From NCBI RefSeq assembly GCF_055900595.2, contig NZ_JBVWEU010000008.1: a stretch of 5,166 bases of DNA; one strand, 5' to 3'. The notes beneath the pieces were generated by a model, which saw only the letters and a program-made list of their open reading frames with translations, ran no database searches and had not been told where the DNA came from. The position numbers and the translations under genes were made by a program. Positions 488 through 5,166 of this stretch are shown here, piece by piece; position 1 is the first letter of the stretch; each line of letters opens with the position of its first letter. The DNA is from a plasmid.

Positions 488-1414
488 TCAGAATCCCATA
501 GAAAATCCACGTGACGGTGATTTAACCCGTTCAGGTGCAGTTCGGTTCTGTCTGCTCACTCTGTCTCTCATGTCAAAGCCATGCTCCCGCGCAACATCAT
601 GTTGCAGCCTTCTGACCAGTTCATGTTGCTTAACCGGAGTGTCCAGCCATTCCCTGATGTCATGCCCGACCGTTCGCGCCTGTTCAAGATGGCGGGAATA
701 GTCCGGTTCAGACCGTTTTTGCATGATGTCATGACGCTGGGCATCATCAAGCCGTCCGGCAGCTTCAAAACCCAGATGCACTTCGGGACGTCGTTCAATG
801 CCCTGTTCTTTCAGCGTCCGGCAGTCAATGAAGCCCCTTTCAAAGCCATGCTTTCTCATATGTTCGTTGTGCTTCACCTCCCAGCGTTTTCGCAATTCCC
901 GCAACTGCTCTTTTTGCTGAGTGAGAGTCAGGCTTCCGGAATCCTTTTTCGCACCTCCCCGCTCGGGATACCTGGCGTTATAGCGCCGGAAATACTGTTC
1001 CGGTGTACGTTCAATGCCATCATTCACACGCTGACTCATCATGATATGCGCATGAGGCTGTTCGCCGCCGTCAATGCTCGCTTTCGGATTGTGAATGGCA
1101 AAACTCCAGGCGTGCCGTTCGCCAGCTTCCTGACGTACAAAATCCTGCACCAGTTCAAGGCGCTGTTCCGGTGTCAGTTCACGGGGTAATGCAATTTCAA
1201 GTTCCCTATAGGTCGAACCGTTCGCACGTTCAAACTGGTCAGCCGCCTGCCAGAAATGGGAAGGATTATCCCTGGCCCATTCCGGCATGTTTCCGTGTGC
1301 GGAATATTCCAAATCCTGACGGTCGCGGTATTTCTCTTTGCGCTCGATGTAATCGGCGTGGTTTGCAGCCTGCCCCTTGCCACCAAATTTAACGCTGAGG
1401 TGATAGGTTGCCAC
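488..1414 (-). CDS. mobA: MOBQ-family relaxase MobA (relaxase domain only, 308 aa)
   Basis: 308-aa ORF with GTG start and GAGGG about 8 nt upstream. N-terminus MATYHLSVKF...ADYIERKEKY (catalytic Tyr region), ERANG, EIALPREL and HAHIMMSQRVNDGIER (histidine-triad motif) match my recollection of RSF1010 MobA-type relaxases. No primase-like C-terminal extension. Confidence 0.85.
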   Translation of the reverse strand: MATYHLSVKFGGKGQAANHADYIERKEKYRDRQDLEYSAHGNMPEWARDNPSHFWQAADQFERANGSTYRELEIALPRELTPEQRLELVQDFVRQEAGERHAWSFAIHNPKASIDGGEQPHAHIMMSQRVNDGIERTPEQYFRRYNARYPERGGAKKDSGSLTLTQQKEQLRELRKRWEVKHNEHMRKHGFERGFIDCRTLKEQGIERRPEVHLGFEAAGRLDDAQRHDIMQKRSEPDYSRHLEQARTVGHDIREWLDTPVKQHELVRRLQHDVAREHGFDMRDRVSRQNRTAPERVKSPSRGFSMGF

Positions 1415-2139: not shown

Positions 2140-2197
2140 CTGCTCAAAAAGACGCCAGAAAGGCGCTGTTATCTGATATAGGCTTATTTGGTCTACT
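2140..2197 (-). other. ori: ColE2-type origin of replication (Rep-binding / primer RNA site)
   Basis: Directly 3' of rep and overlapping its stop codon. The rep-sense strand reads TAGACCAAATAAGCCTATATCAGATAACAGCGCCTTTCTGGCGTCTTTTTGAGCAGC, which matches my recollection of the ColE2-P9 minimal origin (AGACCAGATAAGCC..TATCAGATAACAGCGCC..TTTGGCG). Confidence 0.6.
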
Positions 2198-3107
2198 CTA
2201 CGAGACCTCGTTTTTTCAGTTGGTAATACCAGGCGCGACTGATCCCTAATGCCTCCCACGGTTTCAGCGTGCGTGCAGATGTAGCTACTGTGCTGCGCTT
2301 AGACTTAGAACCGCCCTTGCGACCGCGTGCAGCCTGAATTTCTGGCGTGTGCGTATCAGCCACATACTGTGCGAAAGTTTCCGGCGTGAAGTTCCTGTGC
2401 GTGTATTTCGCAATGCTCTTGCCAATAGCCCGACATTCAGCCAGTGAAAGCGGAACGGGAAGCGATGCATTGTACATTTCGACACGCTGGATCACCGCTT
2501 CAAGCCACTGTGAGAACGCTGGCCAGCCCTGACGAATCGCCCTGTAAGCCCATTTGCGCGTCATTTCGAACAGGTGGCAGTTTCGCCCCATCCCGTAATG
2601 TTTATCGATGCTACGACGCTCTGAGGCGCTCAAATCGAGATAATCAGCCAGTTCATCGAGGGTATAGGCTTCCTCGCGCCACTCCATCACCAGCCATTCC
2701 AGGTGGAACGGATTTTTGCAAATCAGGCCGCTGTAGTTCACATCCGCACAAAGTTTCTCACACAGCGAACGTTCAACCGCTGCGGCATATTTCAGCGCCT
2801 TAACCGAGGCATCAGGCGCGGTTCTCACGGCGATGTTGAGTGCGTAGAGCAGGTGAGCGTGTCCGTTCACAGGATTTTTAACGGTGATGTTCGGCGCGGG
2901 AGCGTTCCGGTCGCTCCAGTCAATCGCAGCCCCCTCGCGGTCAACGTCAAAAACCAGCCAGAACTGTGCATGAGGCTGGTTCTGCTGGATATACCGTGCA
3001 AGAAGCGCGCGCCCTTTGCCGGAGATACGAAGGCCGAAAGCGAGATCATCCGTGTGATAGGGACGGTGGGGTAAATTTTCTTCGAAGTATTGAAGCGCGG
3101 CGCTCAT
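2193..3107 (-). CDS. rep: ColE2-type replication initiator Rep (primase-like, 304 aa)
   Basis: 304-aa ORF, ATG at 3107..3105 with AAGGA SD 10 nt upstream. Sequence (MSAALQYFEENLPHRPY..., FDVDREGAAIDWSDRNAPAPNITVKNPVNGHAHLLYAL, GKSIAKYTHR) matches my memory of the ColE2/ColE3 Rep family. Origin-like sequence lies immediately downstream, as in ColE2. Confidence 0.85.
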   Translation of the reverse strand: MSAALQYFEENLPHRPYHTDDLAFGLRISGKGRALLARYIQQNQPHAQFWLVFDVDREGAAIDWSDRNAPAPNITVKNPVNGHAHLLYALNIAVRTAPDASVKALKYAAAVERSLCEKLCADVNYSGLICKNPFHLEWLVMEWREEAYTLDELADYLDLSASERRSIDKHYGMGRNCHLFEMTRKWAYRAIRQGWPAFSQWLEAVIQRVEMYNASLPVPLSLAECRAIGKSIAKYTHRNFTPETFAQYVADTHTPEIQAARGRKGGSKSKRSTVATSARTLKPWEALGISRAWYYQLKKRGLVE

Positions 3108-3124
3108 GTGTTACGATTCCTTCC

Positions 3125-3203
3125 AGGTTATCGACCGACATCGCCCCTGTATTTTCGTGAAAGTCTTGGCGGATAGACACGAATTTCAGGGGCGTTTGTT
3201 TTT
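3125..3203 (+). ncRNA. Putative antisense RNA (RNAI-like) complementary to the rep mRNA leader
   Basis: Bipartite hairpin: outer stem CGCCCCTG (3142-3149) / CAGGGGCG (3187-3194), inner stem TTCGTG (3154-3159) / CACGAA (3178-3183), followed by TTTGTTTTT (3195-3203) on the + strand only. Candidate + promoter TTGAAG (3090-3095), 16-nt spacer, TGT-TACGAT (3109-3117) overlaps the rep start. The 5' end is a guess. Confidence 0.4.
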
Positions 3204-3262: not shown

Positions 3263-3290
3263 ATTTACCATAACTCCCGTTGTACGTACC
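3263..3290 (-). other. cer-like XerC/XerD recombination core (multimer resolution site)
   Basis: Minus strand reads GGTACGTACAA-CGGGAG-TTATGGTAAAT. XerD arm is identical to the ColE1 cer XerD site (TTATGGTAAAT); XerC arm is 10/11 to cer GGTGCGTACAA. Central region is 6 bp. Confidence 0.65.
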
Positions 3291-3391
3291 ATGTAAAACG
3301 CCCTCAATCGCTTTCTGGCGCAAAAAACGCAAAAAGACAAGAAAACACCAGGCCAAACCAGAAAAACGCGTCAGAAACGTTTTCAGAGCGT

Positions 3392-3405
3392 TGCATAACT
3401 ATGCA
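3392..3405. promoter_or_regulatory. ARG-box-like palindrome (possible ArgR accessory site of the cer-like locus)
   Basis: TGCATA-AC-TATGCA palindrome, about 120 bp from the Xer crossover region on the XerC side, where cer carries its ArgR site. Pattern TGnAT-N4-ATnCA versus ARG-box TGAAT-N4-ATTCA. Confidence 0.3.
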
Positions 3406-3532
3406 CGAAAGCGATGTGCGATCGGTTTCGTGCGTTCTGAACACCGAACGGCTCAAAACGACAAGTTTTCTCCCCTGGTGCGTGGCGCTCTGACGGGGTT
3501 TCCTGTTTCCAAACTTCACATCTCGCCAGGAC

Positions 3533-3556
3533 AAAAAAAAACCGACCTGGGGTCGG
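3533..3556 (-). terminator. Rho-independent terminator (minus strand)
   Basis: Minus strand: CCGACC-CCA-GGTCGG followed by 9 T (seen on + as A9 then CCGACCTGGGGTCGG). Confidence 0.55.
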
Positions 3557-3691
3557 TGGCAAGAATCAGAGTCTATGGGAAATATTTTAGTTATCGGATG
3601 CTCAATATTCACAAACGCAAAAAATGCCTCAGTGATGCCCTAAAACAACCTTTCCAGAAGGAGTCCGCGCTTTACGATGCACGGAAGAGAT

Positions 3692-3713
3692 AAAAAACCC
3701 CACAAAAGTGGGG
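3692..3713 (-). terminator. Rho-independent terminator (minus strand) at the backbone/AT-rich boundary
   Basis: Minus strand: CCCCAC-TTTT-GTGGGG followed by TTTTTT. Confidence 0.5.
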
Positions 3714-3940
3714 AACCAAGAGAAACAACAATTACAGGTTGTTGGTTGTGTTCGAACAACGATGAAGTAGCTACGCTAAATAATAATTACCGTACAGGCC
3801 CTACATATTCAACACTAAATTTAAGATCCTGACGAAGGATTTATAAATGCACGAAAACACATAGACAGACAAATTCACTAAATTCATACACAAAAACAAG
3901 TGTAGTTTTCTAAGTAAATTAGATTCGACAACCAATTAGT

Positions 3941-3949
3941 TTATCCACA
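3941..3949 (+). promoter_or_regulatory. DnaA box consensus (TTATCCACA)
   Basis: Exact 9-mer TTATCCACA inside the A/C-rich tract. Only one copy seen, so function is unproven. Confidence 0.3.
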
Positions 3950-4097
3950 TCGCATTCCACTCTTGCTACACCAATCACATTTCTTGATATGTAATAGCAG
4001 AAAAAATAAAACCAGACACCAATAGACCAAAAAACAAACATTCAACAAGAAACATTTTGAACAATATCACAAAACTGTCACAACCATCATCAGACTT

Positions 4098-4126
4098 TTG
4101 AAAAAAACTGGTTGCTGTTTTATAAA
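4098..4126 (+). promoter_or_regulatory. Candidate sigma70 promoter (TTGAAA, 17-nt spacer, TATAAA)
   Basis: -35 TTGAAA at 4098-4103, 17-nt spacer, -10 TATAAA at 4121-4126. About 105 nt upstream of the + strand terminator at 4212-4236. Confidence 0.35.
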
Positions 4127-4132
4127 AGCGAC

Positions 4133-4237
4133 TGTAACAACCTCCACTCTATAGTTCCATTAGTTTAAAGTGTCACACAAACTGAGCATCCATTTGTTTT
4201 CCTTACTTTTGCCCCTGTATTCCAAGGGGTTTTTTTA
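4133..4237 (+). ncRNA. Candidate small RNA, module 1 (promoter to terminator, about 105 nt, no ORF)
   Basis: Predicted start about 7 nt after the -10 at 4121-4126. Contains ACACAAAC, then TTTTCCTTAC (4197-4206), then terminator hairpin. No ATG in the interval. Confidence 0.3.
4212..4236 (+). terminator. Rho-independent terminator (plus strand), module 1
   Basis: CCCCT (4212-4216) / AGGGG (4225-4229) stem with 8-nt loop, followed by TTTTTTT (4230-4236). Preceded by TCCTTAC at 4200-4206. Confidence 0.5.
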
Positions 4238-4467
4238 TAACTTAAAGATTAGCACACCACACAAAAACAATAAAAAAAAACGACAAGTTATACAATAAAA
4301 CCAGTACCATCCATACAGCTAATTACATATAAATACTATTAAACCATCTGGACATTAAAAATAAACTCTTATAACATAAAATTAATGCGGTTCCGGTACC
4401 ATATGTCAGGGATAATGTGCAAATGGAGGTATCGGAACTGCATTTCAGTTCATTATTAATTAATGAC

Positions 4468-4494
4468 AAAAAAAAACCTCTGCGAGCGCAGAGG
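4468..4494 (-). terminator. Rho-independent terminator (minus strand), module 3
   Basis: Minus strand: CCTCTGC-GCTC-GCAGAGG followed by 9 T (+ strand A-run 4468-4476). Preceded on the minus strand by TCCTTAC (+ coordinates 4503..4497). Confidence 0.65.
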
Positions 4495-4526
4495 GGGTAA
4501 GGAATGTTCCCGGTCATAATATGTCG
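4468..4526 (-). ncRNA. Candidate small RNA, module 3 (about 60 nt)
   Basis: Runs from the candidate minus-strand promoter (4533-4561) to the terminator at 4468-4494. Contains ATTCCTTACCCCC immediately 5' of the hairpin. Confidence 0.3.
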
Positions 4527-4532
4527 ATAGTG

Positions 4533-4561
4533 TTTATATACATACAGAACAAGAACAACAA
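4533..4561 (-). promoter_or_regulatory. Candidate sigma70 promoter on minus strand (TTGTTG, 17-nt spacer, TATAAA)
   Basis: Minus strand -35 TTGTTG (+ 4561..4556), 17-nt spacer, -10 TATAAA (+ 4538..4533). Directs transcription toward the 4468-4494 terminator. Confidence 0.35.
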
Positions 4562-4713
4562 CCAGCCAACTAATAAATATTTTATTTTTTAGAGCTGAAA
4601 CCTTAAAGCTCACTTCCATTCCATACATTGTTATAAACCTTATGTTGAAAACTGAAAGTAAGTACGGCAGACTTATTAAGTTGCGTGCAGTCTTTTCACG
4701 TTATACAAACAAG

Positions 4714-4770
4714 AACACCTGCGAAGTTATTTCTCCTTACATATCCCCCTATGCCAACGGGGGATTTTTT
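4714..4770 (+). ncRNA. Candidate small RNA, module 2 / possible leader of the 69-aa ORF
   Basis: Weak promoter TTGCGT (4681-4686), 15-nt spacer, TATACA (4702-4707). Transcript would contain TTCTCCTTAC (4731-4740), then ATAT, then the 4743-4770 hairpin and T-run. Start is uncertain. Confidence 0.25.
4743..4770 (+). terminator. Rho-independent terminator (plus strand), module 2
   Basis: ATCCCCC (4743-4749) / GGGGGAT (4759-4765) stem with 9-nt loop, followed by T-run to 4770. Preceded by TCCTTAC at 4734-4740. Confidence 0.6.
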
Positions 4771-4842
4771 CTGGTTCACTAACGCATAAATAATAGTGAC
4801 ACCCTATCATTCACAAACCGTGATAATATAAGGATTATCATC

Positions 4843-5052
4843 ATGGCAAAATTAGGTGAAAACACCCCACATATTATCGATGCTACTGTAGATTTTATGG
4901 CATCAAGCCAGGCATTTCGTGAGTATCTGAAAAAACTTCCCCCTGATAACACAATACCGCCAGCTCTTACTGATGAGCACGTACCGTTATATATACGAAG
5001 GCTGGAATACTATCGTCTGCTTTATCGACCAAAGCAGACAGAATCATATTGA
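4843..5052 (+). CDS. Hypothetical small protein (69 aa), not recognised
   Basis: ATG at 4843 with AAGGA SD (4830-4834) 8 nt upstream; TGA at 5050-5052. Balanced codon usage, hydrophilic, no transmembrane segment. I do not recognise the family ([18 protein letters not shown]...). Competes with a minus-strand frame that is open from the window end to a TAA near 4966. Confidence 0.45.
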
Positions 5053-5166
5053 AAAAAACGGTGAACGGTTCGCGAAATCCTTTCGCGGGTCGTGAGGCGT
5101 TGGACAAGCGAAGCGCGTCAGTTTTTCCGGCTCTTCCCCGTGACAGGTTTCTCCACCAGTTTATCT

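Follow-up and report, generated by a model that had tools for sequence, protein, structure and literature searches.

The heptamer TCCTTAC occurs in three short modules on contig NZ_JBVWEU010000008.1 (assembly GCF_055900595.2). This sequence of 5,166 bases, referred to here as the window, is a complete circular plasmid of Escherichia coli, Col156/ColE2-type and MOBQ. An earlier note on this DNA had pointed out that the complement of the motif, GTAAGGA, places a strong Shine-Dalgarno (SD) sequence next to a hairpin on the opposite strand, followed in each case by a very short open reading frame (ORF). Are these mini-ORFs translated as leader or regulatory peptides, or are they by-products of the motif? 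The analysis presented here indicates that they are most likely by-products and not translated regulatory units. An SD-like sequence with a tiny ORF behind it is what any copy of the TCCTTAC motif would yield on the opposite strand. The motif itself is probably a pyrimidine tract close to terminators, which would end small non-coding RNAs in a cargo module that specifies RNA only.

The TCCTTAC motif precedes terminator-like hairpins

All three modules lie between ~3700 and ~4840, where the G+C content of the plasmid drops to 32%. Relatives of this AT-rich stretch comprise three diverged lineages plus a truncated copy; locus L055 was excluded, as scattered homopolymer indels suggest assembly errors.

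Lineage 1: Col156 type, including a variant (L006) at 89% identity
Lineage 2: 7.4-kb plasmid type, ~82% identical
Lineage 3 (F-type): ~69% identical copies in large IncF virulence plasmids, near fimbrial, STa-toxin, gentisate-pathway and insertion (IS) sequences
Truncated copy: adjoins lysR and microcin B17 genes

TCCTTAC is present in three copies in the plasmid (0.39 expected), a number that was reached in just two of 200 shuffles. Every copy is followed, at a distance of 0-5 nt, by a terminator-like hairpin that is rich in G+C and has a T-run. A consensus scan of positions 3500-5166 yielded six terminator-like sites compared to 1.1 expected, and the layout of an intrinsic terminator, i.e. 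a G+C-rich stem-loop followed by a T-run, was found for M1 (4211-4230, T7), M2 (4746-4763, T6), M3 (4494-4477, T9) and M0 (3713-3698, T6). The T-runs are confined to the strand that carries the motif. The part of the earlier note that concerned the motif and its hairpin is therefore above chance, whereas the start codon with its tiny ORF is not, as detailed further below. The elements are:

4200-4206, plus strand: module 1 motif TCCTTAC, unpaired tract 5' of terminator M1
4211-4237, plus strand: terminator M1, hairpin GCCCCT/AGGGGT at 4211-4230, T7 at 4231-4237
4497-4503: module 3 motif, inside the invariant 12-mer GGGGTAAGGAAT at 4494-4505 (minus strand: AUUCCUUACCCC)
4468-4494, minus strand: terminator M3, hairpin CCTCTGC/GCAGAGG at 4477-4494, T9 from 4476 to 4468
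4733-4740, plus strand: module 2 motif (C)TCCTTAC, directly after the invariant CTGCGAAGTTATTTCT; the joint block spans 4719-4740
4744-4770, plus strand: terminator M2, hairpin TCCCCC/GGGGGA, T6
3692-3713, minus strand: M0, a fourth, related terminator, preceded by UUUCUCUUGGUU and conserved in F-type copies

In front of M0 stands UUUCUCUUGG, which is related to the TCCTTAC tract. The hairpin and T-run of M1 are kept in all lineages, with a closing pair that is G·U only on the plus strand, and the stem of M3 is unchanged across all aligned copies. The motifs vary as follows:

Module 1 motif: TCCTTAC in Col156 and in 7.4-kb plasmids; mostly CTCTTAC, abutting the stem, in F-type copies, with TTTTTAC in two of them (L004 and L008)
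Module 2 motif: TCCTTAC in Col156 (TCCTTAT in L006) and in 7.4-kb plasmids; CTTCTTA in F-type copies
Module 3 12-mer: GGGGTAAGGAAT invariant in Col156 and F-type copies; one G-to-A exchange in 7.4-kb plasmids

The sequence flanking the 12-mer of module 3 is free to diverge. The seed region of a base-pairing small RNA (sRNA) looks like this, with a short conserved tract beside a terminator and a variable 5' part. Over 20 nt, modules 1 and 2 share 80% identity; their loops resemble each other, as do the CA-rich sequences upstream. They clearly appear to be paralogous 3' ends, and module 3 appears to be an inverted relative. Two minus-strand terminator-like sites, M0 at 3692-3713 and another at 3541-3557, face the rep control region.

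These terminators, four to six in number, might be plain insulators that shield the ColE2-type rep control region and mob/yibT from read-through, in which case TCCTTAC would recur by duplication and have no function of its own. The evident paralogy of modules 1 and 2 and the inverted relative in module 3 agree with such a role. So does the orientation of the sites, since the minus-strand terminators at 3541-3557, 3698-3713 and 4477-4494 face rep and two plus-strand ones face yibT/mob. Moreover, the motif degenerates to TTTTTAC in L004 and to CTTCTTA in module 2 of the F-type copies. However, insulation leaves the invariant blocks outside of the terminators, the conserved promoter hexamers and the plus-strand-specific helices (see below) unexplained. 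Nor does it account for the invariance of the module 3 12-mer despite its diverging flank, or for the F-type plasmids, which are large, have no ColE2 replicon and yet keep the same 1.15-kb module. We consider insulation alone an unlikely explanation.

Predicted promoters and terminators frame three non-coding units

If the tract belongs to small RNAs, as we prefer to assume, it would read UCCUUA(C/U), remain unpaired and be located just 5' of intrinsic terminators, and the SD look-alikes and tiny ORFs would be its reverse complement. The terminators would close small non-coding units within a 1.15-kb AT-rich module that contains no detectable protein. Between Col156-type and F-type copies, 60% of the alignment columns are invariant, and these are concentrated in 11 blocks of 9-17 nt, GGGGTAAGGAAT among them. 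Three units are predicted: RNA1, which would start from promoter P1; a long plus-strand RNA, which would start from P4 and extend from 4384 to ~4770; and RNA3, antisense to the latter. Their elements are:

4098-4126, plus strand: predicted promoter P1 (TTGAAA-N17-TATAAA), predicted start ~4133
4133-4237, plus strand: predicted RNA1, ~105 nt, with a conserved, mostly unstructured core at 4133-4198
4349-4377, plus strand: predicted promoter P4 (TGGACA-N17-TAACAT), the top plus-strand candidate, predicted start ~4384
4533-4561, minus strand: predicted promoter P3, -10 element TATAAA from 4538 to 4533, -35 element TTGTTG from 4561 to 4556
4526 to 4468, minus strand: predicted antisense RNA3, ~58 nt, ending at M3 and fully complementary to the long plus-strand RNA

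P1 and P4, and to a lesser degree P3, have kept their hexamers despite diverging spacers. For example, the F-type counterpart of P1 is TTGCAA-N17-TATAAG with a diverged spacer. An invariant block begins at 4133, the predicted P1 start, and terminator M1 ends ~105 nt further on. In the P4 region TCTGGACAT is invariant and the -35 element lies inside an invariant block; the predicted start at 4384 coincides with the first base of a long hairpin. For P3, every lineage has the TATAAA and, 16-18 nt upstream of it, a TTGnnn hexamer. Between 4384 and module 2 the plus strand has no terminator, and therefore a plus-strand RNA of ~390 nt that runs from P4 to M2 and ends at ~4770 is the simplest reading. 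Non-coding units of 50-400 nt, each framed by a promoter and a terminator of its own, can thus be delineated in silico. The existence of these RNAs, their starts and ends, their pairings, a participation of Hfq and the biological target are all deduced from sequence.

Sequence features of an Hfq-type 3' module, and only as such, are present in front of M1 (UUUUCCUUACUUUU) and M2 (UUAUUUCUCCUUAC) and in the tails, which would comprise U6-U9. The plus strand is A/C-rich at 4258-4320, 4546-4581 and 4704-4718 and contains there runs of A-A-N/A-R-N triplets such as AACAAGAACAACAAC (4548-4562). Tracts of this kind are bound by the distal face of Hfq. The CA-rich tracts also give weak CrcZ-type Rfam matches of 13-14 bits. 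The longest invariant block, CATAAATAATAGTGACA at 4785-4801, is located just downstream of terminator M2. Its minus strand (TATTAT, with TTGTGA/GTGTGA 15 nt upstream) might serve as promoter of a transcript antisense to the long plus-strand RNA.

Wobble pairs suggest a structured plus-strand RNA

The predicted long RNA contains three conserved structural elements:

4384-4444 (~60 nt), plus strand: long 5' hairpin, stem of 14-17 bp, loop conserved
4592-4611, plus strand: small hairpin GAGCT-GAAACCTTAA-AGCTC, conserved, loop containing CCUUAA
4651-4699, plus strand: conserved internal helices

For the long hairpin, 101 of 104 alignment cells are paired on the plus strand (14 as G·U) versus 87 of 104 on the minus strand. 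Six pair positions vary one-sidedly, and every change leads to a G·U pair on the plus strand, where the minus strand would contain A·C. The asymmetry is also seen for the helices at 4651-4699, with all 90 cells paired on the plus strand (21 as G·U) versus 69 of 90 on the minus strand. In the covariation analysis, 98% of the cells pair, compared to 41-47% with the partners slid. The proposal of an RNA structure is based on conservation and on this strand asymmetry of wobble pairs in a small set of related sequences.

A strand-specific wobble pattern would suit single-stranded DNA as well as RNA, with the wobbles being G·T in DNA. The plus-strand hairpin at 4384-4444 might then be a priming signal (ssi) on the strand transferred after mobilisation. 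By analogy with RSF1010-type oriT sites, the presence of TAAGTGCGC on the plus strand of the oriT-like site at 1439-1482 would identify this strand as the transferred one; on it the site consists of the inverted repeat GTTTCTC...GAGAAAC followed by TATAAGTGCGC and resembles an RSF1010-type oriT with its nick region. Against a function in single-stranded DNA speaks the conserved promoter, which is placed to start transcription at the first base of the hairpin. Furthermore, such a function says nothing about the TCCTTAC modules, and we deem it improbable.

The tract as a putative pairing element

In the small-RNA reading, the tract would most likely be an RNA pairing element that, like those of ChiX and CyaR, serves as an anti-SD-like seed and adjoins a 3' module of the Hfq type. 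A matching site would be provided by the complement of module 3 on the long plus-strand RNA, GGGGGUAAGGAAU. RNA3 would pair perfectly with this site, and the UCCUUAC tracts of modules 1 and 2 could pair with it over 7-8 bp. When the full-length plus-strand RNA was folded, GUAAGGA at 4497-4503 paired with UCCUUAC at 4734-4740, with a probability of being unpaired of ~0.01. This long-range pairing, which would mask the SD-like site, is predicted for the window and for L006 (unpaired probabilities 0.01-0.08). It is plausible, short of being established.

One may speculate that the module is a self-contained sRNA/sponge circuit in which sibling sRNAs share the anti-SD seed UCCUUAC, the longer RNA carries the SD mimic GGGGGUAAGGAAU, and the siblings and the antisense RNA compete for this mimic. 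We regard this elaboration as doubtful. If it were true, free seeds could act on ribosome-binding sites of the host or of a co-resident plasmid, and a 'cryptic' plasmid could in this way influence its host.

Two negative results concern protein. Comparing ORFs of at least 12 amino acids on both strands between the lineages revealed none that is conserved, only frame-independent echoes of conserved DNA blocks. Likewise, a six-frame Pfam scan of 3473-5054 gave no family at E <= 1.

The mini-ORFs are not conserved

All three combinations of an SD-like string and a tiny ORF were found in the sequence as the earlier note had written them. It had placed them within 4172-4527, which is correct for modules 1 and 3, whereas the module 2 unit lies outside this range:

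4206 to 4200, minus strand: SD-like GTAAGGA of module 1, spacer AAACAA, 6 nt to ATG
4193 to 4173, minus strand: mini-ORF 1 (MDAQFV and stop), ATG at 4193 to 4191, GAT GCT CAG TTT GTG, TGA at 4175 to 4173; judged incidental
4493-4503, plus strand: SD-like GGGGGTAAGGA of module 3, directly before the ATG at 4504
4504-4530, plus strand: mini-ORF 3 (MFPVIICR and stop), eight sense codons to 4527, TAG at 4528-4530; not conserved
4740 to 4733, minus strand: SD-like GTAAGGAG of module 2, 14-nt spacer to GTG
4718 to 4701, minus strand: mini-ORF 2 (MFLFV and stop), GTG at 4718 to 4716, TTC TTG TTT GTA, TAA at 4703 to 4701; judged incidental

Start codons at these distances are to be expected by chance. 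In the region 3650-4900, an ATG, GTG or TTG follows within 0-14 nt at 53% of all positions, and the probability that all three sites possess one is ~0.15. A start codon at the functional spacing of 4-9 nt is found at 29% of the positions and, among the modules, only for module 1 (6 nt). The 14 nt that separate the SD-like sequence of module 2 from a GTG are too long, and in module 3 the ATG follows GGA at 0 nt. A possible alternative SD sequence of module 3, GGGGGU, is located 5 nt upstream of the ATG; two of its G's are part of the hairpin stem.

Neither the peptides nor their lengths and stop codons are conserved. Mini-ORF 1 encodes MDAQFV, MILS in the 7.4-kb lineage (a 1-nt deletion shifts the frame) and MNAQFMLHFKLMEL in F-type copies, where the stop is lost. 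Its substitutions change amino acids (D to N, V to M, stop to L) and fall on would-be third positions of the opposite strand. The products of mini-ORF 2 are MFLFV, MFLFVL, an extension of more than 21 codons, MLV and MFV, and L004 has no start codon. For mini-ORF 3 the products are MFPVIICR, MNTPVRILS, 24 amino acids, MIQSE, MIRSE and 13 amino acids, and L006 lacks the ATG. The next feature on the same strand is a terminator in each case and never a gene: M0 follows mini-ORF 1, M3 follows mini-ORF 2, and M2 follows mini-ORF 3.

How do these findings bear on a regulatory role, in which ribosomes would load at GTAAGGA and translation would control RNA structure, stability or downstream expression? 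It is favored by module 1, where the spacing is good and the SD-like sequence and the ATG are kept in most lineages. Module 3 contributes the GGGGGU sequence and an ATG 0-2 nt after GGAAT in five of six lineages, and its mini-ORF lies on the plus strand, i.e. the one with support for RNA structure. Because this ATG next to the invariant 12-mer has been retained so widely, translation of mini-ORF 3 is conceivable. On the other hand, L006 lacks the start of module 3 and L004 that of module 2, the spacing is 14 nt to a GTG in module 2 and 0 nt from GGA in module 3, the differences in mini-ORF 1 are non-synonymous, and a terminator instead of a conserved ORF lies downstream on the same strand. Moreover, mini-ORFs 1 and 2 are antisense to the strand that is favored by the terminators and wobble pairs. 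The very short ORFs behind an SD sequence in a non-coding control region of a plasmid do resemble leader peptides such as tap of R1 repA, the repY/repB leaders of IncI/IncB plasmids, and the cat/erm leaders. In contrast to the mini-ORFs, which are unconserved and have no gene on the same strand, those leaders are conserved and are coupled or structurally linked to a downstream gene. A function as leader or regulatory peptides, the first possibility raised in the note, is thus quite improbable. The second one, by-products of an anti-SD motif, holds up well: the motif is located on the terminator strand, and the G·U pairs specific for the plus strand mark the RNA opposite mini-ORF 2 as structured. 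As mini-ORFs the finding is ordinary, as they are the mirror images of a terminator-proximal motif.

A further reading frame on the plus strand, which starts with GTG 4170 (4170-4298), looked coding-like, since third codon positions account for four of the six differences between Col156 and F-type copies (MSHKLSIHLFS versus MQHKLSIHLFS). It was rejected: the frame runs through the terminator, has no SD sequence and is stopped at codon 4 in the 7.4-kb lineage.

Comparison with known RNA systems

The bacterial sRNAs ChiX (MicM) and CyaR (RyeE) are Hfq-dependent enterobacterial RNAs that silence mRNAs whose ribosome-binding site pairs with their anti-SD tract of the CCUC/CCUCCUUA type. Their layout consists of an A-rich stretch, a pyrimidine anti-SD tract and a terminator. 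The module likewise displays an A-rich (ARN-like) stretch, a pyrimidine anti-SD-like tract and an intrinsic terminator with 6-9 U, and the predicted sizes of RNA3 and RNA1 (58-105 nt) are in a similar range. In contrast to ChiX and CyaR, the predicted RNAs are plasmid-borne and occur as several paralogous copies on both strands; the small hairpin of RNA3 is not conserved in F-type copies. The CyaR_RyeE model (RF00112) matches RNA3 at 4471-4543 of the minus strand with 17.6 bits (threshold 47, E = 4.3), and RNA3 is not a member of this family. ARAGORN detected no transfer RNA or transfer-messenger RNA.

Clusters of paralogous small units with one common short motif next to the terminator are also formed by OmrA/B, Qrr1-4 and LhrC1-5. 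Here, unlike there, one of the copies runs antisense to a different unit within the cluster, and expression and a common target are hypothetical. The region can be viewed as a putative new case of a familiar kind, in which pyrimidine tracts would end predicted small non-coding transcripts. No convincing core site on reading the sequence, and no Rfam match, was obtained for an Xer/cer site, ColE1-type RNA I/II or an integron attC site, and these identities were discarded.

As in hok/sok, the predictions place a short antisense RNA across an SD-like site and let this site pair with a 3' anti-SD sequence further along the same transcript; unlike in hok/sok, there is no conserved toxin ORF, and the pairing partner is not conserved across lineages. 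A type I toxin-antitoxin system of this kind, in which the SD sequence of the plus-strand RNA would be masked by its own 3' anti-SD sequence and by RNA3 while the toxin ORF is decayed or tiny, would be in line with the converging predicted promoters P4 and P3, the 58-nt overlap that covers the SD-like site, the predicted long-range pairing of GUAAGGA with UCCUUAC and the plasmid-borne location, but is very improbable given that neither strand of any lineage contains a conserved small hydrophobic ORF, that hydrophobic ORFs of the T-rich minus strand are not common to the lineages (the one of 40 amino acids at 3919-4041 stops early in L006), that the mini-ORF behind the SD-like site ranges from 0 to 24 codons, and that no toxin or antitoxin family of Rfam matches.

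Several observations weigh against the proposal that the tract ends small non-coding RNAs. Every RNA boundary is a prediction, and P3, a weak candidate, escaped the consensus scan. Terminator M2 is present in the Col156 and 7.4-kb lineages, while F-type copies have lost the hairpin and kept the T-run. The covariation is not significant, as there is one pair with a double change and such a pair also occurs in 312 of 500 shuffles. With respect to pairing, the site at 4497-4503 pairs with a CUUACC elsewhere in F-type copies, and in the 7.4-kb lineage the pairing is absent from the structure of minimum free energy. None of the seed regions of RNA1, RNA2, RNA3 and M0, when compared with the starts of rep, mobA, orf132, orf177 and yibT, surpasses shuffled controls; long duplex-folding runs were uninformative on targets. 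Rfam searches of the whole window and subsequently of 3650-4900 at E <= 10 gave no match that reaches the gathering score. The ATG 0-2 nt after the invariant GGGGTAAGGAAT, retained in five of six lineages, has to be added, and the sequences compared represent only three or four related lineages. Nevertheless, promoters, terminators and strand-specific helices have been kept across lineages that are only ~69% identical, despite the lack of any annotation or protein domain. If the small RNAs are real, they would provide a function for a very widespread 'cryptic' plasmid.

The putative RNA module occupies a variable cargo slot

More than 200 records of 5.16 kb from E. coli, Shigella and Klebsiella match the window from end to end with at least 99% identity (e.g. 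pCE10B and pSCU-175-5). In these records the replicon type is Col156 (or rep_cluster_2131) and the relaxase type MOBQ, and the plasmid is present in 311 of 5,426 complete E. coli genomes. Plasmids of the 5.2-kb MOBQ12 group have been described as cryptic and without phenotype (PMC4270462). The annotated genes are:

488-1414, minus strand: mobA
1591-1989: ORF of 132 amino acids (orf132)
2193-3107, minus strand: ColE2-type rep, with Pfam matches to Replicase and PriCT_1
Spanning the window ends: ORF of 177 amino acids (orf177)
4843-5052, plus strand: yibT-like ORF of 69 amino acids, a 'hypothetical protein' in the records

No annotation exists between ~3700 and ~4840 in any record inspected, including RefSeq records, which would list Rfam RNAs. 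A literature search found no description of the AT-rich region, nor, among the papers searched, any that contains its conserved sequence strings. A scan of contigs from one genome per species gave matches in Escherichia only, apart from chance matches; a metagenome scan detected the 7.4-kb lineage only, and a phage collection contained no match.

Comparison with sister plasmids defines the location of the module:

3473-5054: variable cargo slot, holding the RNA module (~3671-4819) and the yibT-like ORF (4843-5052)

In a sister plasmid of 3.75 kb (L058), position 3472 is joined directly to 5055, and in one of 6.08 kb (L057) the same slot is occupied by an operon for a tRNase-type colicin, immunity and lysis. 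The AT-rich module of 1.15 kb makes up 22% of the plasmid. In the 7.4-kb relatives (L005, 984-3150), a gene for an FAD-dependent oxidoreductase and an arsR-family gene are inserted between window positions 4295 and 4378, that is, exactly between the terminator of module 1 and the start of the long hairpin, and promoter P4 is removed.

The ORF of 69 amino acids and the chromosomal small protein YibT are paralogues that share 72% identity at the amino-acid level and ~77% at the DNA level; the similarity of the DNA is limited to 4836-5037. The SD sequence of the plasmid ORF, TAAGGAT (4829-4835), is complementary to the UCCUUA motif. Both this SD sequence and the ATG are mutated in the 7.4-kb lineage. 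Chromosomal yibT has been listed as a predicted target of RydC at -24 to -10 (PMC6354806). A kinship between the region upstream of chromosomal yibT and the module was considered, as GTTTTCCTTA and ACCGGGAAC are common to both, and was rejected because the similarity is within the null distribution.

Three minor observations concern the slot and its surroundings. A perfect consensus DnaA box, TTATCCACA, is found at 3942-3950 on the plus strand and is not conserved in L006 or in F-type copies. The plus-strand ORF of 137 amino acids at 3280-3693, which is a hypothetical protein in some records (L001, 1528-1941), extends across a minus-strand terminator as well as the junction of backbone and cargo at 3472, and is probably not a gene. 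Finally, a weak match to the Rfam family PK-repBA at 3072-3195 of the minus strand (26 bits, threshold 45) covers a hairpin and an AAGGA sequence just upstream of the rep start, and this segment is presumably the ColE2-type antisense/leader control region of rep.

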